Position numbers and translations under genes: made by a program. From assembly GCA_964562545.1 (NCBI GenBank), contig CAZLTV010000001.1, positions 7,796 through 71,795 on the forward strand: a stretch of DNA of 64,000 nucleotides. Direction: 5' to 3'. The DNA comes from an uncultured Mycobacterium sp. (GTDB taxonomy: Bacteria > Actinomycetota > Actinomycetes > Mycobacteriales > Mycobacteriaceae). Positions 1,277 through 40,381 of the stretch are shown here, piece after piece. Below the pieces are notes generated by a model. That model ran no database searches. It was given only the letters and a program-made list of their open reading frames with translations, and was not told where the DNA came from. Numbering within the stretch: position 1 is the stretch's first letter; each line of letters starts with the position of its first letter.

Positions 1277-1543
1277 ATGACCGGCACCATCGTCTTACGC
1301 AAAGCATCCCCTGTCGCCTTCACCTCTGTCGATGATGCCTATGAGCAGATCTTCGAGAACAACCTTGATTTCGAGGCAGCTCAAGACATCACAGATCGCG
1401 AGACGGCGAAGCACGTCCTCGATGCGATATCGCGCCGCCGTGAAGAGCTCGATGGTGCCAATCAGGATGCCCTCGGCACCATCTATGCTCACGCCTCGCT
1501 GCACGAAATGTTTTCGACTGTCTCGAAGGCTTGGGACATCTAG
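1277..1543 (+). CDS. hypothetical protein
   Basis: AGGA RBS, 88 aa, co-oriented, codon style matches neighbours. Confidence 0.65.
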   Translation: MTGTIVLRKASPVAFTSVDDAYEQIFENNLDFEAAQDITDRETAKHVLDAISRRREELDGANQDALGTIYAHASLHEMFSTVSKAWDI

Positions 1544-1560
1544 CCCCAACCGCTCACATT

Positions 1561-1640
1561 CCGCCCGGGCGCCCAGGCGCCGGGCGGCTTCCCCTCAATG
1601 TCGACAGGGCGACAGTGAACAGACAAGGGGAATGAAAATG
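1561..1640 (+). repeat. leading-region double-hairpin repeat, copy 1 (covariant)
   Basis: CCGCCCGG-G-CGCC-CA-GGCG-CCGGGCGG, then CTTCCCCTCAATGTCG..CGACAGTGA..AGGGGAATGAAAATG. Confidence 0.85.
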
Positions 1641-2240
1641 TCGACCACGCTCTATCACACCTCCGCCTCGAAGCCTGACGCCGCGGCTCTCTGGAGCAAG
1701 GTCACCGCGATCGCCAAGGAAGGTGTCGTTCCCCTCTCCGATACGACCGTCTACAAGGCAGCATCGCTACTCCACAGCGCCGCCCTCGCCAACGGCCAAC
1801 GGGTGACCGCATACGCCTGGAAAGACGATTTCTCCTTCGTCAGCGCCTTCGGCCCGGCACTTCTGGAAGAGGCGACCCTCACCCAGCTGCGCCACATCCT
1901 CTCCAGCGACGGTGAAACCGCGGCAAGCATGCTCGACATCATCGTAGAACTTGGCATTCAGATCGAGCTCGTCGATGACGAAGACCAGCCGCCTCATCTC
2001 AAGGCCGTCAATTGGGCAGCCGACGATGTCGACTTCCGTCTCGCCAACGGCCAGTTCGACGCCCTTCTCACCGTCCTCGGCATCCAGCAGGAACGGAACA
2101 CCGAGGTCGGAAAAGTCGATCTCGCCACCTTCGAAGCAGCCGTCGCTGAGAATGGTCACGACACTGGCCACAGCGGGAAGCTCAAGGCCTTCATCGAGTG
2201 CGCCAAACGGCACAACGCCAGCACGATCTACTGGGCCTGA
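1638..2240 (+). CDS. hypothetical protein (paralog of 1..551)
   Basis: Starts at the ATG ending repeat copy 1 (MSTTLY...); similarity to the first ORF. Confidence 0.8.
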   Translation: MSTTLYHTSASKPDAAALWSKVTAIAKEGVVPLSDTTVYKAASLLHSAALANGQRVTAYAWKDDFSFVSAFGPALLEEATLTQLRHILSSDGETAASMLDIIVELGIQIELVDDEDQPPHLKAVNWAADDVDFRLANGQFDALLTVLGIQQERNTEVGKVDLATFEAAVAENGHDTGHSGKLKAFIECAKRHNASTIYWA

Positions 2241-2343
2241 CCTTCACGCCCCAGATGCCCTGAGGCGGAGCGGCCCATATCGCGGCAACTCCGCCGTCAA
2301 CGCTCCGATCGCTGCCACACCGTAGATTTCCGATGTGGCCTGC

Positions 2344-2460
2344 CCGGCTGGCCCCTGACATGACCCGGCCCGATTGCGCCTGGGATCTCACGCCCCAGCC
2401 GGCTCCATCCCCACTGCCTTGAAGACCTCCGGTACATCCGGACATGGGAATGAAAAAATG
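2344..2460 (+). repeat. degenerate copy of double-hairpin repeat
   Basis: CCGGCTGG...CCAGCCGG arms with a long insert, ending GGGAATGAAAAAATG. Confidence 0.5.
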
Positions 2461-2736
2461 AAGACCTTTCAGCACATCTGCGCCAGCGCCACACAACCCG
2501 GCCCCGGCATCGTGATCTTTCTGATCACATGGATTGCCATGGTGGCCCTCAGCTCTTCCGTAGTCGCTGTAGGATACAGCTTCTTCGGCGTTCTGTGTGC
2601 CCTCCTCGCCCCGTTCTTCGCTACCGAGTTCATCATCCACATCGGCCGTGGATCGCGCATCAATGCTTTCGTCACCTTCGTCGCGGCTGCTCTCGCAACC
2701 GACCAACTCGTAATGATCTTCACCGCCGCTTCCTGA
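2458..2736 (+). CDS. small membrane protein
   Basis: Start after GGGAA; 2-3 hydrophobic segments. Confidence 0.65.
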   Translation: MKTFQHICASATQPGPGIVIFLITWIAMVALSSSVVAVGYSFFGVLCALLAPFFATEFIIHIGRGSRINAFVTFVAAALATDQLVMIFTAAS

Positions 2737-2784
2737 GGCTCGGAACCGAGCACCCCACAACCCGAAACACGGGAGTACGCACTT

Positions 2785-5328
2785 ATGCGCAAGATGCTTA
2801 TCGTCCGCGGCCCCCAGGCCTCAGGCAAGACCCACCTCGTTCGCGCTCTCGATCTCGAGGGCCACCGCCTTTCCGCCGACCTCATTCGTGAAGCTCACCG
2901 CGGCCGCGTGCTGAACCTCAAGGGCCAGCTCGTCATCGATCAGGAGAACGCCCACCAGATCTGGGACCTTGTGCGCGTCTCCCTCGAGCATCGCATCTCG
3001 CGCGGCGAGTTCGTGGTTCTCGACGCCACCTTCTCCGTGCCGACCCACTACGAAAGCATCATCGCAGCCGCCTATGCGGCTGGCTACGAGATCGGCCTCG
3101 TCGACCTCTATGGCACAAACGAAGACCTGCTCTTCGAGCGCAATGCTCAGCGCGCTCCACATGAACTCGTCCCGGAGAAATCGATGCGCCGCATGCTCAA
3201 GGCATACGAACCGCACCCCGAGGATGATCACCGCATCACTGCCCGCTTCGATTTCATCAGCTCCACCGATGAAATCGGCCAGTGGCTGCGCGCCCACACC
3301 GCCAATCTCGATGAGTACGAACGCATCGTCCATATCGGCGACCTGCAGGGCGTCTTCGAAGCCGCCTTCGCCGGCGCCTCGCCGCTCGAGAAAGAGCTGC
3401 GCGACGACACCTTCTACATCTTCGTCGGAGACGCGCTCGATCGCGGCCTCGAAAATGCTCAGGTGCTCGACTGGATTATCGACCAAGTAACGCCGCGCCT
3501 CGGCAAGAACGTCGTCTGGATCGAGGGCAATCACGAACGCCACCTCGCCGACATGGTCGCCGGCCGCGACATCGTGAGCCGCGAGTTCGAGAACCGGACC
3601 CTGATGCAGCTCATCGAGACCAATCCGAAATTCGATGACATCCGGGCCTTCCTTGCAGGCATGAGCGAGTACTTCCTCTATGACCACGCCGGCCAGAGCG
3701 TCATTGTCACCCATGCTGGCCTGCCAGCCGTCCCGGGCAACCTGACCCTCGTGCCTGGCCACCAGGCCATGCACGGCGCAGGCGGCTTCGGGGCCGACGT
3801 CGACGAGGACTTCGCCCAGTGGGCATCCCAGCAGGACCGCCCGTGGCGGCAGGTGCATGGCCACCGCAACCGCAAGATGCATCCCTCGCGCGTCAACGAA
3901 TACTCCTTCAACCTTGAAGGACAGGCTGAATTCGGGGGCCATGTTCGCTTCGCCGTGAAGACCCGCTTCGGCTGGGAGACCATGGACGTGCGCAATGGCC
4001 TGTTCCGCACGCCGCGCGAGTGGGCATCCATCGACGAAGAGGAGAAGCGGAAGCCGTTCTCCCGCCGAATGCCCATCCCTGCATGGCAGCATCGCTTTGC
4101 CGCGGAAGGCTATCTCTCGGAAAAGACTCTCGAGGCCTACCGCGAGCACAAGCACGTCAACATCCGCACGCAGGAATCGCGGCCGCACATCGACACCATC
4201 GCCTTCGCCAAGTCGGCCTTCTACGGCCAGCATTGGGACGGCATGACGAACAAGGCACGCGGCCTCTTCATCGACAACCGCGACCGCCGGATCATCGCCC
4301 GCTCCTACGAGAAGTTCTTCAACCTCGGAGAGCGCCCGGAGACCGAGCTCGACTACATCGCCGAGAACTGGACCTTCCCGATGACCATGAGCCGCAAGGA
4401 CAACGGCTACCTCGGCCTCGTCTCATGGGACCATGAGCGCGGCGAGATCGTGTTCTCGTCGAAGGGCTCGATGGACAATGACTTCGCTGCCCTTTTCGAG
4501 CAGATCGCCAGCCGTGTTCTCGGCTCGGCTGGTATCGAGCGCCTCGGCCGCGCAGTGCGCGACCTTCAAGGCACCGCCACCTTCGAAGTCATCTCGCCTA
4601 CGGAAGATCCGCACATCGTCGAATACGACGAAGAACGTCTCGTCCTCCTCGACTTCGTCCACAACTCCGAAGAGTTCGAGAAGCTCGACTACAAGAAGCT
4701 CGTCCAGCTGGCGAAGTACATCGACGTCGAGCACCGCGAGCTGCTGGGCAACCTCCCAAACCGCCAGGCTCTTGCCTCCATCGTCGAAAAGCTCCGCAAC
4801 CCCGACAGCGGCCTCTACAAGATGCACATCGAAGGCGTCGTCATCGAGGACGCGGCTGGACGCCACGTCAAGGTGAAGTCCGGCTGGTACGACCACTGGA
4901 AGCATGCCCGCCGCCTCGTCGAGCGGCTGGCGCTCCAGCGGCGTCGCAACCAAGAGATCGACCTACGCACCCCAGCCGAGCTCGAAGACTTCATGGCATG
5001 GATCGAGAAGCAGGCCGATGAGATCACCGGCCTGCCCATCGTCGAACTCCGCCGGCGTTTCATCGAAACGCCGGATGAACTTCTCGTCATCGATCGCGAA
5101 GCTCTCGAAGCCGAAAAGCTCGCTGCCCGGATTGCCTCCTCTCAGGAGAAGGAGATCACCGGGTTCATGAGCGGATACGATGCCCTGCTCTCACAAGTGC
5201 GCGCAGGGACCGCATCCCCCGAGAGCGTCGAGCGTCTTCTCAATCGTGGGCGTGCCGAACCACACCTGCGGCAGGCCCTCGAAGCCAGATCTGACTATTC
5301 GGAGATGGCTGGCTACGAATCCCGTTGA
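2785..5328 (+). CDS. RNA repair enzyme: polynucleotide kinase - metallophosphoesterase - T4 Rnl1-like RNA ligase fusion (Pnkp-like)
   Basis: N-terminal P-loop GPQASGKT with DAT and RNAQR; calcineurin-like motifs GDLQG, GDALDRG, GNHE, HAG, HGH; ligase motifs ARGLFID, RSYEKFFN, KDNG, EGVV, KVK. Confidence 0.85.
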   Translation: MRKMLIVRGPQASGKTHLVRALDLEGHRLSADLIREAHRGRVLNLKGQLVIDQENAHQIWDLVRVSLEHRISRGEFVVLDATFSVPTHYESIIAAAYAAGYEIGLVDLYGTNEDLLFERNAQRAPHELVPEKSMRRMLKAYEPHPEDDHRITARFDFISSTDEIGQWLRAHTANLDEYERIVHIGDLQGVFEAAFAGASPLEKELRDDTFYIFVGDALDRGLENAQVLDWIIDQVTPRLGKNVVWIEGNHERHLADMVAGRDIVSREFENRTLMQLIETNPKFDDIRAFLAGMSEYFLYDHAGQSVIVTHAGLPAVPGNLTLVPGHQAMHGAGGFGADVDEDFAQWASQQDRPWRQVHGHRNRKMHPSRVNEYSFNLEGQAEFGGHVRFAVKTRFGWETMDVRNGLFRTPREWASIDEEEKRKPFSRRMPIPAWQHRFAAEGYLSEKTLEAYREHKHVNIRTQESRPHIDTIAFAKSAFYGQHWDGMTNKARGLFIDNRDRRIIARSYEKFFNLGERPETELDYIAENWTFPMTMSRKDNGYLGLVSWDHERGEIVFSSKGSMDNDFAALFEQIASRVLGSAGIERLGRAVRDLQGTATFEVISPTEDPHIVEYDEERLVLLDFVHNSEEFEKLDYKKLVQLAKYIDVEHRELLGNLPNRQALASIVEKLRNPDSGLYKMHIEGVVIEDAAGRHVKVKSGWYDHWKHARRLVERLALQRRRNQEIDLRTPAELEDFMAWIEKQADEITGLPIVELRRRFIETPDELLVIDREALEAEKLAARIASSQEKEITGFMSGYDALLSQVRAGTASPESVERLLNRGRAEPHLRQALEARSDYSEMAGYESR

Positions 5329-5398
5329 GATGAGGAAATGGAGGGCCCCAAGGGCCCTCACCTCGCTTCACCCAACTCACCACATCAAGGATCACCGC

Positions 5399-5659
5399 AT
5401 GGCCGACTGGACTGACCTCATCTCGATGGCCCTCATCGACGCGGAAATCCGCGCCGACAAATACGACCACTCGCTCGCGGTCGCATTCGTGGGTGACGAA
5501 CCGGTCAAGAGCCGGCCCGCCTCCACTCGCAACCGCCCCTGCGTCCTCGTCACTGTCAGCAGCCCCTTCAAGGGCTGCCGCGTGACTGCGGTGAACGGCG
5601 TCGAAGAAGCCTCCCGCGTCCCCAGCAAAGACAGTGAGGCTAGCCTCCAGTCAGCCTGA
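5399..5659 (+). CDS. hypothetical protein
   Basis: AAGGA RBS before ATG 5399 (MADWTDL...). Confidence 0.55.
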   Translation: MADWTDLISMALIDAEIRADKYDHSLAVAFVGDEPVKSRPASTRNRPCVLVTVSSPFKGCRVTAVNGVEEASRVPSKDSEASLQSA

Positions 5660-5709
5660 CAGACGCCGGCGTCACCAGACGGCTTGTCCCAGCAAGACTT
5701 CGAAAAGGA

Positions 5710-6168
5710 ATGAAAATGCCCCACCCGAGCTTCTCGATCACACACCGCGGCTTTCAGATCGACCCAGTCAAAGCCGTGGGCGAGGATTGGCCCGTCTGCT
5801 ACCCATGGGAGGCAGAGGGCTTTCTCATCTATCCTGCCGTTATCGACGTGCCCAAGCTCGACGAATTCCCCAAAACCCTCAAGGCAGCCTTCGAACTCAT
5901 CGACCAGCATCTCGCTCAGCTCGAAGCGGCCGAAGGCGCAGACGATGAACTCAGCACTGCACGCTATTCCGTCATCGTTACCCGGGACACGACCGAATCC
6001 GTCACGATCCTCGTCGATGCCGTCGACGAAGACGAGGCCGAAGACAAGGCCATCGCCGCCAGCCGTGATCCGAACCTCAAATGGGAACAGGACTGCACCC
6101 CCAATGCCAGCAAGGAGCATTATACCAACGGTGCCGACCTGATCGAAGACGAGCTCGTCCCGGCATGA
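5710..6168 (+). CDS. acidic hypothetical protein with DpnD/PcfM-like segment
   Basis: Starts in the GGAATGAAAATG context; YSVIVTRDTTESVTILVDAVDEDEAEDKA motif. Confidence 0.65.
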   Translation: MKMPHPSFSITHRGFQIDPVKAVGEDWPVCYPWEAEGFLIYPAVIDVPKLDEFPKTLKAAFELIDQHLAQLEAAEGADDELSTARYSVIVTRDTTESVTILVDAVDEDEAEDKAIAASRDPNLKWEQDCTPNASKEHYTNGADLIEDELVPA

Positions 6169-6364
6169 CCATCCAATCCCCGAAGCGGATCTCCGGGATT
6201 GACCATCCCTGCCACCCTGCGCGGCTGGACATAGAGGACTGCCGGGACTGGTCCGATTTCGACCCTTCCTCCACGAAGTTCCTCAAGATCGAGAGATGGT
6301 CGACAACCCGGGGCCGCCAAGGGGATAACGACTAGCCCCAACAGTGGCTTGTCCTCTCCCCTTT

Positions 6365-6431
6365 CGCCTGGACGCTCTCGCGCCAGCCGTGCTCTACCAT
6401 CCGACATTCTGTCGAAAGGATCGCATCCATG
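6365..6431 (+). repeat. degenerate copy of double-hairpin repeat
   Basis: CTGG-A-CGC-TCTC-GCG-CCAG stem, then CGACA-TTC-TGTCG hairpin, AAAGGA and ATG 6429. Confidence 0.55.
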
Positions 6432-6914
6432 TTCTTCCTCATCTGCCCCGAGAGTTACCAGCACCCCAACGGCGAGGGCAAAACCGTCGCCTACTACCTC
6501 TTCGATGCCGAGACATGGGACCCGACCCGCGATATCTACGAGCAGGGTTACGTCCTCGAGGTCTGGGAACTGGACGGGCGCACTCAGTTCTATCTGCTCG
6601 ACGGGAACGTCGAGAGCACCTTCACCGACTTCGGTGAAGCTCTCAAGGCCCTGCGCAAGAACATGCGCTCCTACGGCGCCATCGTCTCTCACGACACCGA
6701 GGAGAGCCTCCAAGTCGAATACGACACCTACCTCGAGTCCGAGAACCTCCCCCAGTTCTCGATCGAGGACCTCCTCGCTGAAACAAACCTCCATGCCCAC
6801 CAGCGGCGCATGCTCTCTCAATACCTGCTTCGCTGGCAGGCCATGGAAGCAGCCAACAACAGTGAGGATGACCGCACCATGGATGCCGATCCCGGCGAGG
6901 AGACCGACCGATGA
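6429..6914 (+). CDS. acidic hypothetical protein
   Basis: AAAGGA RBS; ATGA overlap with the next gene. Confidence 0.7.
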   Translation: MFFLICPESYQHPNGEGKTVAYYLFDAETWDPTRDIYEQGYVLEVWELDGRTQFYLLDGNVESTFTDFGEALKALRKNMRSYGAIVSHDTEESLQVEYDTYLESENLPQFSIEDLLAETNLHAHQRRMLSQYLLRWQAMEAANNSEDDRTMDADPGEETDR

Positions 6915-7426
6915 AGAAGTACAAGGTGAAGCTGCGCCGCGACGTCCCTGAGGTGACCACCGTCGAAATCTGGGCCGATGACTATCGCGACGCCATGGCC
7001 AAGGCTCCCCGCGCCGTCCAGAAGAACACCCGCTGGGAGCCTCAGGGCGACGAGGATCACAAGAACCTCATGGAGATCGAGGTCGACGATATCGAAGAGA
7101 TCGATCTCGGAGATCCCCTCGCCCCAGCCCTCTACGAAAAGGGATGGGAGCGCCTCCACACCGGCGGCGGCTGCTGGTCGCTCCTGTGGCAGATCGAACC
7201 CGATGGCCCCTACTATCTCATCTCCGACCAAGATTCCGGCATCGAGATCTACGAGAAGGAATGGAGCTTCGGCCATTATGACGCCGAAGGCTGCCAGACT
7301 TGGTTCGTCACCAGCGATCAGTTCCCGGCGCTCACTCTCACCGATTTCCTCGCCTCACTCAATCTGCCCGAACGCGAGCCGAACCAGTACGAGCTCGGAG
7401 GCGGCGATGATGATGCCTCGTCGTAA
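6911..7426 (+). CDS. hypothetical protein with N-terminal DpnD/PcfM-like segment
   Basis: GAGGAG RBS; KYKVKLRRDVPEVTTVEIWADDYRDAMAKA. Confidence 0.7.
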   Translation: MKKYKVKLRRDVPEVTTVEIWADDYRDAMAKAPRAVQKNTRWEPQGDEDHKNLMEIEVDDIEEIDLGDPLAPALYEKGWERLHTGGGCWSLLWQIEPDGPYYLISDQDSGIEIYEKEWSFGHYDAEGCQTWFVTSDQFPALTLTDFLASLNLPEREPNQYELGGGDDDASS

Positions 7427-7600
7427 ATTCCTCGGCCTTTCCGAAGTCTGGCGCGACAACGGGACCGGGACCAAGGACTTCTACGTCCTCTGGATCCGCG
7501 TCTGGCGATCAGACTTCCACCATTCCACCACTTGGTTGCCCTGACCGGCTGGCCCCGTCCGGCCCCTGTCTCATCTTTTCTCTCTCTGGAGCTATTGCCC

Positions 7601-8014
7601 ATGAACCTCGCAACCCTCGTCTATGTCTCGTCGGAACAGGTCAGCACGACTGTCCACGACAGCCGACGCATCGCTCTCGAATACGTGGCCTCCGACCACA
7701 AACTCGATATCCCCGAAGGTCTCGACGACGATGCCCTCGAAGCGTGGCTCGACACCAACGCTTCCTCGAGCTTCCATGTCGAGGAGCACCTCATCGACGT
7801 TCCGCCTGTGGTCGTCACCGTCGATGCCGGTTGCGTCAACCAGGTTGCCGCAAGCTTCCCGCTCGATGTCCTCGTCATCGACAAGGACACGGACTACGCC
7901 GAGGAGGATGACATCATCACTCTCCCCGACGGCTCTACCGCCACCCATGAATGGGAGAGCGCGGAAATCGACGCTGAGTATGTCGCCAACGTCATCTCGC
8001 TCGCGGACGCCTGA
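7601..8014 (+). CDS. highly acidic hypothetical protein
   Basis: GGAG RBS before ATG 7601; very D/E rich with few K/R. Confidence 0.7.
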   Translation: MNLATLVYVSSEQVSTTVHDSRRIALEYVASDHKLDIPEGLDDDALEAWLDTNASSSFHVEEHLIDVPPVVVTVDAGCVNQVAASFPLDVLVIDKDTDYAEEDDIITLPDGSTATHEWESAEIDAEYVANVISLADA

Positions 8015-8022
8015 ATCCCCTG

Positions 8023-8107
8023 CCGGCTGGACGCCCCAGGGCGCCAGCCGGTCTTCTCCCTCAATCTCGGCTCGGCCGAATTGATACGATCAAGGGGAAT
8101 GAAAATG
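8023..8107 (+). repeat. leading-region double-hairpin repeat, full copy
   Basis: CCGGCTGGACGCCCCAGGGCGCCAGCCGGTCTTCTCCCTCAATCTCGGCTCGGCCGAATTGATACGATCAAGGGGAATGAAAATG. Confidence 0.95.
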
Positions 8108-9391
8108 GCCTTCGCCGACCACTACACGCTCATCAACTTCGCAGCGATCGCCGACGCCGCATGGTGGCGCACGAGCGATTTCGGAATGGTGGCCGATGAC
8201 CGCGAAGGCTATGAGGCAGCGGCTGAAGCCGACAAAGCCGACCGCGTCCGCCTCGACGAGCACAAGGTGAAGCTCAAGGCGGCCCTCACTGCACATCTCG
8301 AAGACCTCCGCGCGGCTGGCGCGCTGGGTGCCGCCTCGGGCCTCGGCGGCCGCGACATTCCCAACGCTGAAGCGTGGAATGCCTTTGTCGCCGATGGTCA
8401 CACCTCCCCTTCCTTCGACTGGCTTCTCGACAGCCTCGCATCCGTCTGGACCGCATTCTTCGTTCGCATGGACAAGGACTTCTACGCGCGCCGCAAGCTC
8501 GATGACTATGTCCCGGGCTCACACCAGCCGCCCAGCCCTGATGATATCCGCACCGCATACGAGCGCATCTGCAATGCCTACGACACCGGCACCAGCTTCT
8601 CCGAAGAAGGCCCGCTCGACGACTGGCGCATCGAGGCGCATGACCGCATCACGGGCGACCGCTGCGAACTAAACTTCGTCAGTTGGAAAGCCATGCTCAC
8701 CAAGCGCGACGATGACTACAAGCCCGTCCTCGTCGAAGACGTCACCCCCATGGGCGTTGTCACCGCCAGCTTCGACATGCCCACTGGCAAGATGCTCCTC
8801 ACCGACATCCTGCGTCTCGAATCCTTCGACGAGGGAACCTCGTTCGATGCAGACCGCGAGTACGGCGAGCTCAGCCTCGGCAATGCCCTCGGGCGCAACA
8901 ACCTCGTCGCTGCTCATGCCAGTGAACACCAGATCGCCTTCACCCAGACCGACAACACCTCTGTCGCCGTCCTGCGCGATGCGGCTGGCCGTCTCCTGAT
9001 CACCGAGCGCTTCAGCGAAGAGCACCAGAACGACGATGGCGATCTCGCCGTCCCCGGCTGGGAAGTCGTCGGCACCATCTCCTGCGATGTGTGGCGCTTC
9101 ATGGCCTTCGACCGCGAGAGCGTCCTTGCTCGCATGACGGCTGGCGGCGCTGAAGACGCCGCTGCCGAGCTCGACCGCTATCTCGCCATGGCTGACACCC
9201 TGCCCGACTCTGCCAACCACAAGGCCCATCACGAGGCTTGCTACGCGGCCAACATCGTCCATCTCGACGTCGAGCCTGGCCAGTGGCAGATCCACGGCGG
9301 AGAGAACTTCGACGATCTCACCGATCGCGAAGCCCTCAACCTGCCCCAAGACATCCACCTATGGTGTCTGCTTGAGAAGCAGGCCGCCTAA
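8105..9391 (+). CDS. hypothetical protein (428 aa)
   Basis: Long ORF starting at the ATG of the repeat; no motif recognised. Confidence 0.8.
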   Translation: MAFADHYTLINFAAIADAAWWRTSDFGMVADDREGYEAAAEADKADRVRLDEHKVKLKAALTAHLEDLRAAGALGAASGLGGRDIPNAEAWNAFVADGHTSPSFDWLLDSLASVWTAFFVRMDKDFYARRKLDDYVPGSHQPPSPDDIRTAYERICNAYDTGTSFSEEGPLDDWRIEAHDRITGDRCELNFVSWKAMLTKRDDDYKPVLVEDVTPMGVVTASFDMPTGKMLLTDILRLESFDEGTSFDADREYGELSLGNALGRNNLVAAHASEHQIAFTQTDNTSVAVLRDAAGRLLITERFSEEHQNDDGDLAVPGWEVVGTISCDVWRFMAFDRESVLARMTAGGAEDAAAELDRYLAMADTLPDSANHKAHHEACYAANIVHLDVEPGQWQIHGGENFDDLTDREALNLPQDIHLWCLLEKQAA

Positions 9392-9399
9392 GTCATCTT

Positions 9400-9486
9400 C
9401 CGGCTGGACGCCCCAGGGCGCCAGCCGGTCTTCCCCCTCAATGTCGGCTGAGCCGAATTGGAACCAATAGAGGGAATGAAAAGATG
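9400..9486 (+). repeat. leading-region double-hairpin repeat, full copy
   Basis: CCGGCTGGACGCCCCAGGGCGCCAGCCGGTCTTCCCCCTCAATGTCGGCTGAGCCGAATTGGAACCAATAGAGGGAATGAAAAGATG. Confidence 0.95.
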
Positions 9487-9861
9487 ACCGAACAGATGAG
9501 CGAACTCAGCCTGCGCCCGCTCGACCTCAACGAAGAGCTCCGGCCCGCCAGCATGGAAAACCTCGCCGCCGAGATCAGCAACAACGACAGCCTCGCCTCG
9601 CTTGGCATGAACGTCTTGCTCGTCCATGCCCACAACGACGGCGGATCCCAGCGCTGGGCTGGTCTCGCCTCGCTTGGCGAGGATCTCGTCCATGAACTTG
9701 CAGAAAACGACATCGGCTACGCGTTCCTCACCGACGATGACTTCGCCTCGATCTACAAACAGCTCGACGGCGACCTTGTCGACGAAACCCTCCTGACCAT
9801 CGACCTCCGCCTCTACAAGCAAGGCTGCCTTGTCGCTCGCTACAGCAACGAGCGGCGATGA
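9484..9861 (+). CDS. acidic hypothetical protein
   Basis: Starts at the repeat ATG; ATGA overlap with the next gene. Confidence 0.7.
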   Translation: MTEQMSELSLRPLDLNEELRPASMENLAAEISNNDSLASLGMNVLLVHAHNDGGSQRWAGLASLGEDLVHELAENDIGYAFLTDDDFASIYKQLDGDLVDETLLTIDLRLYKQGCLVARYSNERR

Positions 9862-10139
9862 GTTTCATCGTAGAACCGCACATGGACATCCAGATCGACA
9901 AGCTCTCCGGCGGCTATGCGCGATGCATCGTCAACAACCGCGCATCCTTCGACCAAGGCTTCGCGGCACAGACCCGCTGCACGGCCGCTGGCCATGCCTG
10001 CGGCAACCCGGAGTCCAGGGGCACCGATCCATATCGCGCCTTCGAGATCGGCAAGGACTTCGCCCTCGTCAAAATCGGCGAGCCGACGCCCCATCTCCTG
10101 ACCTCCACCCGTGAGGCCATCGAGCGCGCTCTCAGCTGA
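9858..10139 (+). CDS. hypothetical protein
   Basis: Translationally coupled to the upstream ORF; followed by a terminator. Confidence 0.6.
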   Translation: MSFIVEPHMDIQIDKLSGGYARCIVNNRASFDQGFAAQTRCTAAGHACGNPESRGTDPYRAFEIGKDFALVKIGEPTPHLLTSTREAIERALS

Positions 10140-10151
10140 GCCACACCGAAG

Positions 10152-10188
10152 AAGCGGAGCCGTCTCACCCCTGACGGCTCCGCTTTTT
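10152..10188 (+). terminator. intrinsic terminator
   Basis: AAGCGGAGCCGTC / GACGGCTCCGCTT followed by TTT. Confidence 0.8.
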
Positions 10189-10205
10189 CATTGCCCATCG
10201 ATCTG

Positions 10206-10285
10206 CCGCCTGGACGCTTCGCGCCAGCCGGTCTTCCCCCTCAATGTCGGCTGGGCCAAATTGAAGCCATGAAGGGAACGAAATG
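10206..10285 (+). repeat. leading-region double-hairpin repeat, full copy
   Basis: CCGCCTGGACGCTTCGCGCCAGCCGGTCTTCCCCCTCAATGTCGGCTGGGCCAAATTGAAGCCATGAAGGGAACGAAATG. Confidence 0.9.
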
Positions 10286-10807
10286 AACAAGATCGCACTC
10301 GTCGCTGCCGCCTCCGCCGCTGCTCTCTCCTTCGCTGCTCAGGACACCGGCCCCTATAGCGCCGACAAGTTCCCCCTCCTCGCTGCGGCTGGCTTCACCT
10401 TCACAAAGGAAGGCGCCCTCGCGCCTGGCGGCGACGAACCCATCCGCCGCCTCGCCACGCTCGAGAAGCTCGAGGGTCGTCTCGCCAACGTGCGCTACAT
10501 GGCCGCAGCCATGGACGAGTTCGACATCGGCTCCACCGACCAGCCGAACGATGCCAACGGCCGCCGTCAGTTCGAGCACCTCATGAACCCCAGCTTCCCC
10601 GATCGCTGGACCGGCTACATCTACGTCGCCATGCGCCGCTTCCAGCGCGACGGCGAGCTCGCCAAGCTCTCCCTGATGCTCGGCATGCTCGTCGCCTACG
10701 AGGACAAGCTCGTCTCCGGCCGCGCCCTGCTCGATACCATCGCAATCGATCTCGTCCAGATGGCCGACCTCCGGGATGACGACGGAGAGAAAGGCCGGGG
10801 AGCCTAA
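10283..10807 (+). CDS. hypothetical protein
   Basis: Starts at the repeat ATG; 174 aa. Confidence 0.7.
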   Translation: MNKIALVAAASAAALSFAAQDTGPYSADKFPLLAAAGFTFTKEGALAPGGDEPIRRLATLEKLEGRLANVRYMAAAMDEFDIGSTDQPNDANGRRQFEHLMNPSFPDRWTGYIYVAMRRFQRDGELAKLSLMLGMLVAYEDKLVSGRALLDTIAIDLVQMADLRDDDGEKGRGA

Positions 10808-10980
10808 GGCCCCAATACATCCCCGGCTGGACACCATCCGGCTGGGGCCCCTATCTACGAATTCCCCATAAGGGGATGACACCGCGAAGCCGACGCAACT
10901 CGGGCGAAAATGCCTGAACGAATGATCGTCTTGCACACACCGGCGGCACACCGCCGCCCTGCAATCGAAAGACGACCATT

Positions 10981-11241
10981 ATGACTACACCCAAGGGCGA
11001 CTATGCCCGTCACCCCTATCCTTACATCGTCGCCTACTGCCGCATCATGAGCAGCAACGAGCGATACCAGCGTGACGAGGTCGAACGGGCTCGCAAGCGC
11101 AACGCTCCCAAGGATTGCTATACCTGCTACATCGGGGAAGAGCCGCGCCTGGCGCGCGACCTTCCCGAGACAGCAATGCTCCGTGGTCGGCTCGAAAACT
11201 ACACAGGCATTCCCATAGACGATCTCATCACTCGCTCCTGA
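10981..11241 (+). CDS. hypothetical protein
   Basis: 86 aa, co-oriented, stop immediately before the next repeat copy. Confidence 0.6.
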   Translation: MTTPKGDYARHPYPYIVAYCRIMSSNERYQRDEVERARKRNAPKDCYTCYIGEEPRLARDLPETAMLRGRLENYTGIPIDDLITRS

Positions 11242-11256
11242 CAATCCCATCCCCTG

Positions 11257-11344
11257 CCGGCTGGACGCCCCCAAGGCGCCAGCCGGTCTTCCCCCTCAAT
11301 GTCGGCAAAGCCGAATTGAAACCAGATAGGGGAATGAAAAGATG
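11257..11344 (+). repeat. leading-region double-hairpin repeat, full copy
   Basis: CCGGCTGGACGCCCCCAAGGCGCCAGCCGGTCTTCCCCCTCAATGTCGGCAAAGCCGAATTGAAACCAGATAGGGGAATGAAAAGATG. Confidence 0.95.
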
Positions 11345-11596
11345 TGCGACTTCGCCAAGACCCACACCCTCGGACAGGCATACAACATCTCCATCGATGC
11401 CAAGCGCTCGAGCACCGCACGACTCTTCTGGGCACTCGACCGCTTCGACTTCGACCGCCACGAGCTAACCGACGCGGGCCATCGCGAAGGCCGCCTCCAC
11501 GCAAGCCAAGCCTGCGCCCTCGAACTCGACGCTCGCGGTGTGTCGATGCACGACCCGACCAAGCCGATCGACTTCCCGCGAGACATGCCCGCCTAG
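11342..11596 (+). CDS. hypothetical protein
   Basis: Starts at the repeat ATG. Confidence 0.65.
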   Translation: MCDFAKTHTLGQAYNISIDAKRSSTARLFWALDRFDFDRHELTDAGHREGRLHASQACALELDARGVSMHDPTKPIDFPRDMPA

Positions 11597-11639
11597 CACT
11601 CAGCCAAGCGCCGACACAGAACCATCGAAGGGAACGACA

Positions 11640-11855
11640 ATGCAGCCTGACACAATCGCCGCCCTGATCTTCACCATCGGCTGCTTCATTGCAGCTGGCA
11701 CCCTCCTAAAGGGTCTATCAGCCGACACCTTCGCCACTCACCCGAAGAGCGATAGAGACCGGTCTGGCCCTGATGCAGAAAAGGTTGCTGCCTCGGCTCC
11801 AAGCCTTCAACAAATGCGCAAACTCTGGGCCGAGGTCGACGCCCAATACAGCTAA
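11640..11855 (+). CDS. small protein with N-terminal TM helix
   Basis: AAGGGAA RBS, ATG 11640, IAALIFTIGCFIAAG. Confidence 0.55.
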   Translation: MQPDTIAALIFTIGCFIAAGTLLKGLSADTFATHPKSDRDRSGPDAEKVAASAPSLQQMRKLWAEVDAQYS

Positions 11856-11903
11856 CCAGCCTAGCCATCGACCAACCTTCCCCATCCTTCCGACTAGCCC
11901 GAT

Positions 11904-11987
11904 CCGGCTGGACGCCCAGGGCGCCAGCCGGGCTTCCCCCTCAATGTCGGCTGAGCCGAATTGAAACTAGACAGGGGAATGAAAATG
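11904..11987 (+). repeat. leading-region double-hairpin repeat, full copy
   Basis: CCGGCTGGACGCCCAGGGCGCCAGCCGGGCTTCCCCCTCAATGTCGGCTGAGCCGAATTGAAACTAGACAGGGGAATGAAAATG. Confidence 0.95.
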
Positions 11988-12560
11988 GCTCGCACCAACA
12001 CGCTCACCTTCCGCAACCGCGTCTTCAAGCAGCTCCGCGCTGCGGGCCTCAACAGCGTGAAGGCCAAGGCCGCTCGCACCGCTATCCTCGCTGGCGCTTA
12101 TGCGGCTGGCTACCCCGAGATCGCAGACGACTACGCCGCCCGCGTCTCGTTCGACAGCGAAGACTTCCAGAGCGTCTATGTCGACGACAACGGCATCGCT
12201 CGCTTCGGCTCGCCGCTCCGCGATGAACTCCAGCCGCTCGTCAGCACCGCCCCCACGGAAGAGCAGAACAAGCTCTCCGCCGAGCTGCTCGAAATGCTCC
12301 CCGACCTCTACTCCGCTGAAGGCGAAGAGAAGGATCGGCTGAACGCGATCTACAGCGCGAAGCGTGACGCGATCCTCGCGATCAACCCGCACGTTCACGC
12401 CTTCGTCGCCGACCCCGATGGCGGCGAATACTTCCACAATCTGCACAAGGCAGAATACGGTTTCCGTCCGCGCGGCTTCCGCACCTACGCACAGATGCGC
12501 GAGGAGATCGACCTCATCATCCGCACCGCGCAGAACGTCGAGTTCGACGTCGCGGCCTGA
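11985..12560 (+). CDS. hypothetical protein with phage-like LHKxxYGFRPR motif
   Basis: Starts at the repeat ATG; C-terminal NLHKAEYGFRPRG. Confidence 0.75.
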   Translation: MARTNTLTFRNRVFKQLRAAGLNSVKAKAARTAILAGAYAAGYPEIADDYAARVSFDSEDFQSVYVDDNGIARFGSPLRDELQPLVSTAPTEEQNKLSAELLEMLPDLYSAEGEEKDRLNAIYSAKRDAILAINPHVHAFVADPDGGEYFHNLHKAEYGFRPRGFRTYAQMREEIDLIIRTAQNVEFDVAA

Positions 12561-12632
12561 GGCCCCAACCACTCCTCTCCCCTGCCAGTCGCGCGAGCGG
12601 CTGGCCCTGCCATTCTTCGAAAGGACAGCCCC

Positions 12633-13118
12633 ATGGGACACCGTTCGCGCAACACCAATGCTCGCTTCCACTTCTCCGGATATTGGCGCACTTGGTCGCT
12701 CCTCCTGAGCACCGATTGCGAGGCCACGCCCGGCTCCGGCCCGACCGTTGAGATCGACCTCTCGCCGATCAACAATGACCACTCGCGCGTGCGGCTCCTG
12801 AACGTTCGCCGCCACTGCACCGAGCTTGGTCGAGGGGACCGCCGCACCAACGTACTCCCCGTCGAAATCGCTGAAGAGTTCGTTCACATCGTCGGCGAGG
12901 ACGTCGCAAGCTTCATCCTCAATACCGAAGCCGCCGAGCTTCTCTCGCTCATCGATTTCGAGAAGTATCACGCCGTCCGGAATGGTGGCGCTTCCCTCTA
13001 TAATGTCATCAGCGACGACGTCGCGCACCTGCTGCCGAAGCCCGCCGCGACCACCACTCGCATCCATGCCATCGCCGGTACAAGACCGTCGAAGCATCAC
13101 GCGCGCTACTCGCGCTGA
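12633..13118 (+). CDS. hypothetical protein
   Basis: AAAGGA RBS; 161 aa. Confidence 0.65.
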   Translation: MGHRSRNTNARFHFSGYWRTWSLLLSTDCEATPGSGPTVEIDLSPINNDHSRVRLLNVRRHCTELGRGDRRTNVLPVEIAEEFVHIVGEDVASFILNTEAAELLSLIDFEKYHAVRNGGASLYNVISDDVAHLLPKPAATTTRIHAIAGTRPSKHHARYSR

Positions 13119-13131
13119 CCGGAGATACCCG

Positions 13132-13419
13132 ATGCTGAAAATCGACGAAGCTAATCGCACCGTCACCCTCGTCACCACGCTCGGTCACGGCATTGGCAAA
13201 TACATGGAGACTTGGTTCGAGGTCGACATGAAGGAACCCTTCGAATTCACAACCAACATCCATGTCGTTCCCGATAGCGATAAGGACGAGTTCGAGGATT
13301 TCTGGAACGCCATTTACAGCGTCCAGCTTGAGAAGGTTTCGATCGTCTGTGACGTCGACGACCACGGCGCTCTCACCAGTTCACCCTCCAAGATCACAAT
13401 CCTCGAAACGAAGGACTGA
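13132..13419 (+). CDS. hypothetical protein
   Basis: GGAG RBS before ATG 13132 (MLKIDE...). Confidence 0.65.
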   Translation: MLKIDEANRTVTLVTTLGHGIGKYMETWFEVDMKEPFEFTTNIHVVPDSDKDEFEDFWNAIYSVQLEKVSIVCDVDDHGALTSSPSKITILETKD

Positions 13420-13424
13420 CCCTC

Positions 13425-13868
13425 ATGGCCGAACCGAATTTCCTCAACGCACTTCGCGCTGCTCAAGCACATCTCGAAGCCTCTGCCGCTGCCGAGAAAC
13501 TCGCCACCATTCGCCTCCACCTCAGCGGAGGCATCACGTACAACGTGCTCTGGTTCACGCACATTCCTCCGCGCGGCCTTAGCGTCATCGAAGCGATCGT
13601 CGACACACCCAATGGTCCTGTCCGCAGCACCATCGCAGTGACTTCGCTTCACTCCGTCGAGATGCCCGACAAGTCAGTCATCATTCCCACTCGGCGCAGC
13701 GCCGAAGCTTCGCGGATCGCCAACAAACTCGCCGATAACCTCGGCAACTTTGTCACCGAAGACATGCGCGCCAATCTAGAAAATTCGCTGCTCCAAACCT
13801 ATCGCCCCTACATCTCCGAAGAGGAGTGGATCGATAGCTGTGAAGCGACATCCCAACTCGCCGCATAG
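13425..13868 (+). CDS. hypothetical protein
   Basis: AAGGA RBS; 147 aa. Confidence 0.65.
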   Translation: MAEPNFLNALRAAQAHLEASAAAEKLATIRLHLSGGITYNVLWFTHIPPRGLSVIEAIVDTPNGPVRSTIAVTSLHSVEMPDKSVIIPTRRSAEASRIANKLADNLGNFVTEDMRANLENSLLQTYRPYISEEEWIDSCEATSQLAA

Positions 13869-13885
13869 GCTCGTTTAGAACTGTT

Positions 13886-13969
13886 CCGGCTGAGCGCCCA
13901 GGGCGCCAGCCGGGCTACCCCCTCAATCTCGATGAATCGAAATTGAAACTCAAAAGGGGAATGAAAATG
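13886..13969 (+). repeat. leading-region double-hairpin repeat, full copy (covariant)
   Basis: CCGGCTG-A-GCGCCC-A-GGGCGC-CAGCCGG, GCTACCCCCTCAATCTCGA-TGAA-TCGAAATTGAAACTCAAAAGGGGAATGAAAATG. Confidence 0.9.
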
Positions 13970-14164
13970 GCCGCTTGTCTGCAGACCCAGCGCGACGAAC
14001 TTCTGACCGAACGCAGTCACCTCGTGAACCGCATCGACGAACTCCACACGCAGCCCGTGAGCGACGATCGCGACCGCGCCATCTGGGCTCTCGAAGAGAA
14101 CCGCGACCTTCTCGATTTCGCACTCGACCAGACCGAGGCAGCGCTTCGGGCCCAGCACAACTAA
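13967..14164 (+). CDS. small coiled-coil protein
   Basis: Starts at the repeat ATG; heptad-like leucine pattern. Confidence 0.65.
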   Translation: MAACLQTQRDELLTERSHLVNRIDELHTQPVSDDRDRAIWALEENRDLLDFALDQTEAALRAQHN

Positions 14165-14192
14165 GGCCCCTTCAACCGCCTCTCCCCGAAGG

Positions 14193-14241
14193 CCCCGACG
14201 CGAGCTCGGCAATGCCGTTTCTCGCGTCGGGGTTTCTCTTT
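14193..14241 (+). terminator. intrinsic terminator
   Basis: CCCCGACGCGAG / CTCGCGTCGGGG followed by TTTCTCTTT. Confidence 0.6.
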
Positions 14242-14287
14242 CCATCACTCTTCGTGTTCTGAAATCGAACCATTCCGGAGACATGAA

Positions 14288-14782: not shown

Positions 14783-14813
14783 TCGTCCAACATCCTCCCA
14801 CAGGAGGTGAGCA

Positions 14814-15683: not shown

Positions 15684-15920
15684 GACCAAATTCCCCTTCG
15701 GGTGAAGCACGCCGGGTTACATCCCGGCCTCTCCCATTACGGTCGAGAAACTAGGAACCTGCTTCAAGCTCGTCAACGAGCCATTTCAGAAACCACCCAA
15801 ACTCCCTGTTACCGATATCCGGAGATCCTCACGGACCCCGAAAACGGTAACAAGAGTCGTCCAGAAATCCCAGATTTCTCCAATTCGACGGTAACAAAAC
15901 CCACGTTTGTTACCTTTCTT

Positions 15921-15965
15921 GGAATTGGCGCAATACCGTTAAAGTGGCCAGCCACGTTTAACCGG
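15921..15965 (-). other. oriT: candidate oriT (MOBQ/RSF1010-like), predicted nic between 15929 and 15928 on the minus strand
   Basis: Minus strand reads CCGGTTAAACGTGGCTGGCCACTTTAACGG-TATTGCG^CCAATTCC: an inverted repeat abutting a TAxxGCG^CC core, as in RSF1010 (IR-TAAGTGCG^CCCT); it lies upstream of the relaxase. Confidence 0.55.
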
Positions 15966-16200: not shown

Positions 16201-19200
16201 ATGGCAAAATCGTCAATCAGCGCCGACGTAAAGGCGGCCAACTCTAAACTTGCTCAGTTCCTGCGTCGGCAGGAAGAGGAGGAGATGCTCCTCCAGATCG
16301 GCAAGACAAAACCGAAGCGGGAGCGCGAGGAAAAACGCATGCCCGCCGGCCGTGCTCGCTGGTCCGCGCAACCCGACTTCAAGGTTCCTACTTGCATGGT
16401 CGACCGACCTCGCACAGCCGATGGTGCGACGTCCTTCCACTTCTCATACATCAGCATCAGCAAAGAGGCTGTCCCTACCCTCAAGGGCAAGCCACTCGAG
16501 GGCGTCTTCGGCCGGAAGAAGCAACCGGCTCTGGACCACGCCAAGTACATCGAACGTGATGGCGCCGCCGAGGTCTCCGAAGGCGTCCAGCACGCTGACT
16601 ACATCGAGCGGCCGGACGCTATTGAAGCGGTCGATCCGAGCGCTCTCGTTGCTGAGTCGATTGAGCGTCAGCTTGCCGCGGTCTACAACGAAACTCCAAC
16701 AGAAGAGGAGGCATCCCTCCTCGGTGTTCAAGCCGTGGCCCCCGAGGGTGTCCCCTCTGTCTTCAGCAACATCTCAGACGACCCCTTCGAGCGCCAGGAA
16801 TATTGGCGTGCGGTTGAACGCTCAGAGCGTGAGCCTCGCTCTCACAAGCTACTATTCGATCCCGAAGTATCCCCTCGCTGGTGGGCCGCAGTCGAGCAGA
16901 GCGATGGGTTGGACCCCACCTTCAAAGCCCACCTTCTTCATGTCGCAGAAGAGTACCGCCAACATATCCAGGCGCCCACAGAAAACGACGCTGCTAAAGA
17001 ACCGTTTAGGCCTACCGCCTATCCCCCACCTGGCAGCAAAGCACGCCTCTCAGCAGAGCAGGCCGGCAGACTTCTGCAGCAGGCAGTCAGCCTTCCCGGC
17101 TTCGACTACTCGCAGCCTCCAATCGAGTTCAAATCCGGCCGCGGCGGTAGAGTGCAAATCCGCTTCGTCGCGGAGTTGCCCCATGAGCTGTCCGCGGAGG
17201 ATCGTGCTCTTATCGTGCAGAATTTCTGCGATCGGTTGAGTTCGCTTGAAACGCGGATACAACCCGACGGAACCGAGAAGCCAGTCGGCATGATGTATAC
17301 CGCTGTGATACATGCTCCGGATGCTCACAACGACGACAGAAACTACCACCTCCACATCGTCGCGAACGACCGTCCTGCGAAGTACCTAGACGAACACGGT
17401 ATGTGGGACTTTGAGGTCCCAGAAGTCTTCAGTCGGCCCGGCAGCGGTTCACTCCGAACTCGCTATCCCTTTCGCCAAAACAAGATCGGGGAAGTCACCC
17501 AGCATTCGTCTCGCACCGGCAAGGAAAATTCTGGGAGGGATTTCATCCCAGCGATGCGCCGCGACTTCGCAAAGATCACCAACACGGTCCTCAAAGCTCG
17601 CGGCGTCCAACGGCAGTATGATCCACGTCGCTATACTGAGATGGGCATCGACCGTACGCCGACCGACCACCTCGGCACCAAGGCTGCCGCCCTTGAGGCA
17701 ATCGGTGTTCCCACAACTGTTGGACAGCTCAACGCCATTGCCATCTGGAGCGACGCTGAGCGCAACATTGAACGGCAGGCTCAGCAAGCCGATCGCAGCT
17801 ACAAGATTGAGCAGAGCCGCATCGAGTCTGTAGTTCGCCACGCTGCCGCCAAGAACACTTCCCACCCATCTCTCACCGAACTCCGCAAGCTGATGGTCGA
17901 GCGTGACCGTCTGACGAAATCGCTGGCCGAGGACCGCCGCGCGATCATGGCCTTCGACAACATGGAAGCGAAGGCCAAGTCGCGTGCAGTCAGGACACGT
18001 CAGACCTGTCTCGCCTACCTTGGCGAAATCGAAAAGGGTGTTGCCGATGGCACCACCCGCGTCATGAAGTTTTCGATCGAAGCTCGCTTCAAAGATGCTC
18101 AGGAGCACATCAACAAAATCGACGCAGCGCTCGCTCCTCATCGGGACGTACTCATCCAGGCCGCCCAAGACGTAGAGCGGCGCGAAGCGCGCGTGCTCGA
18201 GATCGATCGGATCACCGCGCCGATCACTGCCGATCTCCGAGACCAGCTCGGTGTCGATGCAGAAAAGTCGGCCAAGGAAGCTTCACCTCGGCATGCCGCC
18301 CCTGCCCCAACTCCTGACCTTGCCGAGCCTCAAAATATCCCGGCCAAAGGTCGGAAGAAGAAGGCCAAGAAGCCTTCCGCCGAGGCCCAGGCTCAGGAGG
18401 ACGTCAAGATCAACGGGCCCTCAAAAGCCGGCGCCTCTGAGAGCGCCAAAGAGGCCATCGATCCAGAGGCCGAAGAAGTCCAAGCTCCTGCAAACGCAGG
18501 TCGGGTTACGATGGAGGGCCTTCCAATCACGGAAGGCACTATCCAGCCTTCGCAGAAAGACAAGCCTGCGCCCCAGTCCATCGAAGGCCCTGCTCCAACC
18601 CCTGAGGGTCTCGAACCTCTGCGGCCTGAAGTCCGTGAGCCCAAGAAGCCTGTCGAACCAGAAACTGTTATCACTGATCTCGATCGCGATGACCGTCAGG
18701 ATAATTCGTCGAGGCCCGCCTCTCTCAACAACGAGAAGCCTCAGCCACACTCATCGAACACTGCTGGAACTGAACGCTCGGACCGGCCGAATGCTCAGCC
18801 CGCAGAAAAGCCAAATCGCGCTCCAGATCCGAGCGACGTTGAAGCCGCGCCAGCCGAGGGTCGCCAGCCCAAGAACCGAGCGACCCCTGATGCACAGACC
18901 TCCGGCCATCAGCAAAATAACCAGCCGCAAGAGGCGCCGCGCTCTGCATCATACGATGAAGAATCCGGAGCTTCCAAGAAGGCCGAGAAATCGCCTGCTG
19001 ATGCTTCAAGCGAGAAATCCGACAACCGCAGCAAACAGGATGACCCCACACTCTTCGAGCTTCCCAAACAGGAAGCCCCAGTGAAGCCTGGTACCAAGAA
19101 AGCTGAGCATGCGGATTGGGACGCACTCATGAACCGCATCGTGAAAGAACGCATCCCGATCAAACTCGAGACCACCCGAAGCGGCAAACCCAAATACACG

Positions 19201-39716: not shown

Positions 39717-39718
39717 AT

Positions 39719-40378: not shown

Positions 40379-40381
40379 GTC

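Follow-up and report, generated by a model that had tools for sequence, protein, structure and literature searches.

Promoters that act on single-stranded DNA (ssDNA), namely Frpo1/2, ssi1-3 and ssp1-3 of F, ColIb-P9 and pESBL, are described as long hairpins, one to a promoter, in which -35 and -10 boxes are rebuilt, with no more than six of them per plasmid (PMC9849209, PMC12672017, PMC13478746); in the cited literature they come only from enterobacterial IncF and IncI1 plasmids and were found by a search for long -35/-10 hairpins. EGeRS1 of pLS20 is reported to have no consensus promoter and to block read-through (PMC8708921), and C-closed mini-hairpins of the G(N)A type, described as more stable in DNA than in RNA, occur at the initiation sites of G4, ssiA and N4 (PMC13037366). 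The stretch considered here, called the window, comprises 64,000 nucleotides (nt) of contig CAZLTV010000001.1 (positions 7,796 to 71,795; hereafter C1) in assembly GCA_964562545.1, assigned to an uncultured Mycobacterium sp., and it carries seven full and three partial copies of a twin-hairpin repeat of about 85 nt, all on one strand. In its best reading, this repeat represents a compact class of ssDNA promoter that would also hide the ribosome site in read-through mRNA, and that would be new; no earlier description was found in the literature searched, most subscription papers and supplementary candidate lists lying outside the reach of that search.

The repeat and its distribution

An earlier note on this DNA, made from the letters of the sequence, had listed the seven full copies given in Table 1, and their coordinates, their single strand and their ending at a start codon are all confirmed. 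It had also stated that most copies begin 8-17 nt after the previous stop codon, which holds for five of the seven, the exceptions being copies 10206 and 11904 (copies are named by their first position), which lie 66 and 48 nt past the preceding stop. Its degenerate copies were recovered in part: a covariance model places them at 2369-2462, 5648-5721 and 6357-6423, leaves the one at 10823 unmatched and, in keeping with the statement that the window holds no others, finds none past 13,972. The compensatory changes of copy 1561, the shifted bulge of copy 13886 and the apical variants are present as described, and among the full copies of the window only 10206 has GAA as its mini-hairpin tip.

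When read 5' to 3' on the minus strand, the element consists of the complement of the start codon, 0-4 nt, the motif TTTCRT, an outer C-rich/G-rich stem, a bulge of 7-8 nt, an inner stem beginning with TNCRNT, a short linker and finally hairpin 1 with its GC/GCG tip; on the gene's own strand, the Shine-Dalgarno sequence (SD) and the start codon accordingly form the 3' end. TTTCRT lies at a fixed 12-14 nt from TNCRNT and 20-22 nt from the inner C, loops measure 3-7 nt and the distance between hairpins 1 and 2 is variable. The invariant columns over 36 copies are TTTC.T at the stem foot and the G-C pair of the tip. The first ATG of ATGAAA was considered as a consistent start and rejected, with 0-4 nt to the gene's ATG. 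A second subtype, with seven copies at 37,000-46,400 of the Sphingosinicella plasmid locus introduced below, heads near-identical small genes and has a short CCCC/GGGG hairpin ending in TGAAA; it keeps TTTCATCCCC at a stem foot although its own, separate SD lies further on, so this motif is more than an SD spacer.

The covariation that the earlier note had reported is borne out: in 19 of 26 pairs both partners vary across the 36 copies from three plasmids, a value reached by none of 500 shuffles, although these copies are related and the counts are not independent events. Within the 18 closest copies this holds for only 4 of 29 pairs, and 97 of 500 shuffles score as high.

C1 measures 222 kb with a G+C content of 59%, other large contigs of the assembly having 63-67%, and the window encodes a MobA/MobL relaxase, a VirB/VirD4 system, a primase, helicases and a protein that binds single-stranded DNA (SSB). 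Among 72,556 plasmids, two complete relatives were found, one of Erythrobacter aureus (NZ_CP031358, 408 kb) and one of Sphingosinicella (NZ_CP035502, 347 kb), with relaxases 81% and 58% identical to that of the window, respectively. Roughly 270 nt 5' of the relaxase gene, an inverted repeat followed by GTATTGCG/CC is present on the minus strand; this core together with an inverted repeat occurs in 8 of 16 relaxase loci scanned, and in seven aligned loci the core is invariant while the arms covary. Such a layout matches the nic site of RSF1010, where the part 3' of the nick is described as remaining on the relaxase (PMC4814116). By this likeness, the minus strand would be the transferred one, with window positions 15,928 to 1 entering first, and the nick is a predicted, not a mapped, position. 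All genes that follow a copy would thus have the predicted transferred strand as their template.

A hidden Markov model (HMM) search over the whole 4.1-Mb assembly (E < 0.1) returned ten matches on C1 and one on contig C57, the upstream continuation of the same plasmid; in the source assembly, 12 of 12 matches lie on C1 and the adjoining C57, and C1 has further copies upstream of the window. All 14 matches on the whole E. aureus plasmid fall 2-40 kb upstream of the relaxase, as do, at 2-44 kb, 17 of the 19 on the Sphingosinicella plasmid (copy number 12-19), the other two being weak (E 0.02 and 0.06) and located elsewhere; the strong plasmid matches are the training copies of the model. Across the three plasmids all matches are on one strand, nearly all are within about 45 kb of the RSF1010-like nick, and the copies keep to the side of the nick away from the relaxase. 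This is the confinement near the origin of transfer (oriT) for which the earlier note proposed to look, and it supports its view of a control element of the leading region.

Searches further afield returned little. The 22 GTDB relaxase loci contain no element; the two closest relaxase relatives (G401 and G402; 50% identity, same nick core) have just the relaxase with its divergent neighbour and carry no copy, G403-G405 and G806 have none and G807 has one weak match, and relaxase relatives without the array are also without the element. The relaxase was not found in 400 sampled genomes of its own order, nor VirB4 in 401 genomes of a sphingomonad-centred sample, and scans of single proteins and of viral loci gave no match. 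With one copy as the blastn query against the 72,556 plasmids, only two records fell below E 1e-5, both sphingomonad, and a Sphingosinicella copy matched only itself at full length. Exact-pattern scans gave nothing in viral contigs and 14 single matches in metagenome contigs, none of them with the remainder of the element, and a phage search gave only 23-nt chance matches. No Rfam family, whose presence the earlier note had suggested checking, matches the element: there were no window matches at the gathering score, and of six sub-threshold ones in 1400-14300 none covers a copy beyond the terminator flank of copy 10206. Contigs from four DNA runs carry related plasmids, with ambiguous joints at the copies.

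Table 1. Features of the window, with positions counted from its first letter (ORF, open reading frame).
Feature	Position	Strand	Remarks
Full copy, hairpin 1 and hairpin 2 with SD, heads ORF 1638-2240	1561..1637	+	Predicted fold on minus strand
Degenerate copy, heads ORF 2458-2736, 5' of kinase-phosphatase-RNA ligase gene	2369..2457	+	E 0.003; minus-strand z -3.1 for 2338-2462
Kinase-phosphoesterase-RNA ligase (PNKP-like) cargo gene in array	2785..5328	+	PF13671, PF00149, PF09511
Tail-only remnant ahead of ORF 5716-6168	5648..5715	+	E 0.02; no significant fold
Degenerate copy, hairpin 1 and short hairpin 2, heads ORF 6429-6914	6357..6428	+	E 0.006; minus-strand z -3.5
Full copy, heads ORF 8105-9391	8023..8104	+	Covariance model
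Full copy, heads ORF 9484-9861	9400..9483	+	Covariance model
Terminator-like hairpin with T tract, immediately 5' of copy 10206	10153..10188	+	
Full copy, heads ORF 10283-10807	10206..10282	+	Minus-strand fold only; GAA mini-hairpin tip
Variant, hairpin-1-like stem and short CCCC/GGGG hairpin	10821..10880	+	Unmatched by model; resembles second Sphingosinicella subtype
Full copy, heads ORF 11342-11596; left edge of cassette absent from E. aureus plasmid	11257..11341	+	
Full copy, heads ORF 11985-12560; right edge of cassette absent from E. aureus plasmid	11904..11984	+	
Full copy closest to predicted nick (about 2 kb), heads ORF 13967-14164	13886..13966	+	Covariance model
Predicted oriT, inverted repeat and core GTATTGCG/CC	15920..15965	-	Predicted nick between 15929 and 15928, minus strand
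MobA/MobL (MOBQ) relaxase; genes for a DnaB-like helicase and VirB/VirD4 come after it	16201..19833	+	

Two further hairpins stand near the copies. A gene header at 12584-12605 has a hairpin-1-like stem with a GCGA loop that folds better on the plus strand, a polarity opposite to that of the element, and a hairpin at 14746-14785, preceded by an A tract and followed by a T tract, is likely a two-way terminator closing the leading array.

Strand preference and modes of action

The earlier note had drawn both hairpins on the plus strand, and six of the seven full copies do fold as plus-strand RNA (z -3.3 to -4.7); the evidence nevertheless leans to the minus strand. Copy 10206 has no fold as plus-strand RNA (z 0.25) and a z-score of -2.5 as minus-strand DNA. 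A strand-neutral count made copy by copy over 36 copies gives 38 G·T against 3 A·C oppositions on the minus strand, compared with the 62% expected from composition, and for hairpin 1 alone the ratio is 14:1; 49 terminator-like hairpins of the same regions, some of them spurious, lean the opposite way (15:8 on the mRNA strand). On the minus strand, 15 of the 33 parsed copies have a hairpin-1 loop of the form G(N1-3)A, in ten different versions, and on the plus strand none has (three of the 36 copies could not be parsed and two were misparsed). DNA folding controlled for composition by shuffling comes out in favour of the minus strand for 31 of 41 copies, and a plain count of mini-hairpin patterns (19 versus 17 of 41) fails to separate the strands because the plus-strand matches fall in a stem arm. 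Hairpin 1 thus tolerates G·T pairs and G(N1-3)A loops on the transferred strand and not on the mRNA strand, a moderate bias, and there is moderate support for its acting as transferred-strand DNA. The strand bias of hairpin 2 is weaker, and selection may operate there on both strands.

On the Sphingosinicella plasmid, a repeated terminator-like hairpin with a T tract ends just short of hairpin 1, at a distance of a few bases; inspection by eye finds it at 9 of 13 copies and a strict rule at 6 of 13. Since it abuts most copies, no room is left for another promoter, and the element is therefore likely to carry the start signal itself. Over 39 copies, the SD is unpaired with a probability of 0.22 in read-through RNA and of 0.47 in a transcript starting at the hairpin-2 loop, the value for 27 control sites being 0.35.

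The repeat may be regarded as a compact ssDNA promoter on the entering transferred strand, a reading that we hold at an even balance. Entry of the minus strand into a recipient would begin at the predicted nick (15929), with each copy folding into two adjacent hairpins, and RNA polymerase (RNAP), by default in the form of the host holoenzyme, would use the folded copy to start the downstream gene, with hairpin 1 bound as an upstream duplex, the bulged hairpin 2 serving as a pre-opened site, and recognition passing through the hairpin-1 tip and TTTCRT instead of σ70 boxes. Starting inside hairpin 2 would yield an mRNA that lacks the anti-SD arm; once the second strand is synthesised, the fold would be gone and transcription would end, and later silence would come from terminators and from SD pairing in RNA that reads through from the double-stranded DNA. 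The copies are likely to serve, in addition, as homologous-recombination points at which cassettes are gained and lost. Position, orientation, copy number, covariation, the SD with its start codon and the terminator-like hairpins of most Sphingosinicella copies are observed; from these we infer the steps past position and fold. Among the options named by the earlier note (ssDNA promoter, priming site or RNA switch), all three still candidates, the first fits best and the other two less well. In a bolder version, which we consider unlikely, the signal would be box-less and read by its shape: a plasmid-delivered factor, be it a divergent σ, a primase or an unrecognised protein, would read the hairpin-1 tip and TTTCRT as happens at the N4 promoter or RSF1010 ssiA, one enzyme would fire 12-19 cassettes at once, and the same sequence would silence them afterwards as mRNA.

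Several observations weigh against an ssDNA promoter. When counted over fixed columns, the strand ratio shrinks to 89:49 (32:6 for hairpin 1 and 57:43 for hairpin 2, the latter partly misaligned), sign tests over the columns (15:7 and 10:3) fall short of significance, and hairpins folded alone or with RNA parameters give no significant z-score bias (21-24 of 41). The minus strand is G+T-rich along the whole contig, and the G..A tip is present in only one of the seven full window copies. Only 1 of 12 C1 copies and 2 of 15 E. aureus copies have a separate terminator before them, and on these two plasmids hairpin 1 usually has a longer perfect stem. The fold rebuilds no -35/-10 box, contains no conserved TTG and has no bulge column that keeps the A expected at -11, whereas the ssDNA promoters of the cited literature all have such boxes; and the evidence comes from three plasmids with related copies, read as sequence only. 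Some hairpin-2 changes, in copies 8023 and 9400, suit an mRNA fold. Part of this would rather suit a switch in the mRNA leader, unlikely in our estimation, in which the genes are transcribed by read-through and hairpin 2 hides the SD until a protein or RNA binding the invariant UGAAA, or an antiterminator, opens it: the SD is paired in plus-strand RNA folds and harder to reach than at control sites, z-scores for RNA prefer neither strand, several hairpin-2 changes retain G·U on the mRNA, and most window copies lack a preceding terminator. Such a switch is, however, at odds with the A·C mismatches and the absence of a stable loop that hairpin 1 would show on the mRNA strand, with copy 10206, unfolded as plus-strand RNA, with the terminator-like hairpins directly 5' of most Sphingosinicella copies, and with the seven second-subtype copies, which keep the motif and yet have their own SD further on.

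A double-stranded promoter-operator in the style of CUP, p576 or PeSL, served by a plasmid σ or repressor and giving zygotic induction, is improbable. The precedent of p576 (PMC6294495), the fixed TTTCRT-TNCRNT spacing and a divergent σ70-family protein common to all three plasmids speak for it; no σ70 consensus site exists in any window copy, however, and the bulges, the loops of 3-7 nt and the variable distance between hairpins suit a fold and not a duplex site. The divergent protein (349 residues, with only region 2 detected) is encoded at about 155.6 kb of C1, a long way from the leading end. Of 401 genomes sampled from the sphingomonad order, 36 have homologues of it, and 34 of the 35 tested have no match to the element, the remaining one having a weak single match, with only 121 candidates scored in each. 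Readings of the element as a σ70, RpoH, σ54 or leaderless start were rejected on spacing or on missing conserved bases, judged by the consensus motifs generally known. No RNAP beta domain was detected on the two complete plasmids, and a search for T7-type polymerases matched no sequence at all and is hence uninformative.

The same two motifs could, at their promoter-like fixed spacing, start a short antisense RNA leftwards from TTTCRT-N13-TNCRNT, which would fold hairpin 1 and pair with the anti-SD arm. Because it would carry minus-strand sequence, such an RNA explains the G·T bias of hairpin 1; we nonetheless think it very improbable, since we know of no σ consensus that the two boxes match and several tip loops (three-base ones, GTTA, GTCA and GGTA) are DNA mini-hairpins and not GNRA tetraloops. 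A priming signal of the ssi type, at which a plasmid primase or the host primosome would start at TTTCRT on the transferred strand, with the short RNA and the SD placement as secondary matters, has little probability too. Mini-hairpins are described as marks of the G4 and RSF1010 ssiA priming sites (PMC13037366), transcripts from Frpo are reported to prime as well (bioRxiv 2026.01.09.698686), TTTCRT is unpaired or frayed 5' of the stem, and the plasmid encodes a primase (window 40382-41416), a DnaB-like helicase and an SSB; priming, though, would not call for sites restricted to places ahead of start codons and behind terminators, or to the initial tenth of a strand of 350-400 kb.

Cassettes, cargo and plasmid content

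The block between copies 11257 and 11904 is missing from the E. aureus plasmid, and both of its ends lie inside copies. Comparison of window positions 1 to 15.2 kb with that plasmid reveals six differences in content in an otherwise largely collinear gene order, of which one runs from copy to copy and another inserts a unit made of a terminator and a copy; two more have a copy at one of their edges, and the last two at neither. The earlier note had suggested that flanking genes might vary between relatives and that the element might shuffle cassettes: the variation exists within a mostly conserved order, and one event is bounded by two copies, whereas site-specific shuffling of the attC kind finds no support. 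Integron attC sites are accompanied by an integrase with the array and have R and L boxes. That the element is such a site, folded on one strand and with gene expression incidental, is most improbable; its strand-biased fold with extrahelical bases and the two-copy-bounded cassette would suit the idea, which is contradicted by the collinearity, by the single copy-to-copy event among six and by the lack of a tyrosine recombinase on the Sphingosinicella plasmid and on C1 and C57, the one of the E. aureus plasmid being 170 kb off. Homologous recombination explains the two-copy-bounded event, and the pattern fits exchange of the kind described for PeSLs (PMC2839356).

Genes behind the copies mostly have no recognised function. 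An ArfA gene follows a copy in both complete plasmids (E. aureus locus 35881-36024, Sphingosinicella locus 7757-7909), and this ribosome-rescue gene together with the PNKP-like RNA-repair gene suggests protection against RNA-cutting defences. A family of proteins of about 200 residues ending in YWA or HWA is also encoded behind copies, twice in the source assembly (window 99-551 and 1638-2240), twice in E. aureus and once in Sphingosinicella.

Beyond the array, a 1398-residue protein (window 41522-45718), located between the primase and SSB genes and with conservation across about 20 relatives, both complete plasmids among them, gave no family or structure match. The region at 71-221 kb of C1 together with window 36-59 kb encodes a set of replication and nucleotide functions that comes close to autonomy (DnaE, DnaN, NAD ligase, ribonucleotide reductase, ThyA, DHFR, two UvrD, RecD2 and a topoisomerase), as well as several methylases, a protein of the Mom family and the helical domain of a 5-hmdU DNA kinase, the last three hinting at DNA modification. 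A large flagellar cluster of the Caulobacter type (motAB, fliP/O/R/G/H/L/M, flhAB, flg genes, fliX, flbT and a σ54 activator) occupies about 112-153 kb of C1. The host bin is 65% complete, its other contigs are richer in G+C than C1 and the closest plasmids are sphingomonad; the plasmid may be mis-binned or of wide host range.

Comparison with described elements

The earlier note did not recognise the sequence as any of the known analogues, and the comparison with Frpo/ssi, EGeRS and attC elements agrees; it lacks, for instance, an accompanying integrase and an invariant AAC/GTT at either stem foot, as opposed to attC. CUP repeats enter the comparison by their generally known features, and the minus-strand origin of M13 has a two-hairpin layout. 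This origin is described as a promoter-like template (PMC7948647).

With Frpo, ssi and ssp, the element shares an intergenic place in the leading region directly before cargo genes, the transferred strand as template, repetition and a GC-rich fold (PMC9849209, PMC12672017, PMC11541004, PMC13478746, bioRxiv 2026.01.09.698686); here, position and template depend on a nick predicted from RSF1010 likeness, and the stable stem-loop on the transferred strand on prediction and covariation. It differs in being 85 nt long with two short hairpins, no boxes, 12-19 copies and the SD inside a stem, and in residing on conjugative MOBQ megaplasmids of sphingomonads and not on the enterobacterial IncF and IncI1 plasmids of the cited reports. 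No sequence likeness to the F/IncI1 members emerged from the blastn search of the plasmids with one copy, Frpo not having been aligned directly. Since it has no single hairpin with -35/-10 boxes, the element is not filed in ssDNA promoter classes 1-3: its architecture is distinct from that of the known ssDNA promoters, and its promoter function is proposed from the sequences of three plasmids. If true, a short box-less class on an alphaproteobacterial MOBQ megaplasmid would escape screens for long -35/-10 hairpins and would offer another route to start transcription on single-stranded DNA, easily testable with at least 40 natural variants and few invariant bases. Beside ArfA and the RNA-repair enzyme, about 12 genes of no recognised function on each plasmid would also be tagged by the repeat as likely to serve establishment or anti-defence.

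Some copies of the element resemble the N4 early hairpin promoter, RSF1010 ssiA and G4, where a short DNA hairpin, closed by C and of the G(N)A or G(NN)A type, adjoins a conserved unpaired stretch of one template strand (PMC13037366). Here the tip motif is present in under half of the parsed copies, a second hairpin bears the SD, and no cognate single-subunit polymerase or RepB'-type primase was identified. EGeRS1 of pLS20 and EGeRS2-Reg576 of p576 are likewise repeated structured or conserved heads of establishment operons (PMC8708921, PMC6294495), but the former spans 420-750 bp with the transferred strand as non-template, in contrast to 85 nt and a predicted transferred template strand (PMC8708921), and the latter is a consensus promoter with operators (PMC6294495). 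PeSLs of phages RB49 and phi1, finally, are described with strong σ70 double-stranded promoters and an AT-rich tract, neither of which the element has; in other respects they resemble it, as intergenic repeats of about 100 nt that reach from stop codon to ATG, combine a stem-loop with an SD and head ORFans, and in which a relative has a lone copy in place of a gene flanked by copies on both sides, as the block 11257-11904 is in E. aureus (PMC2839356).

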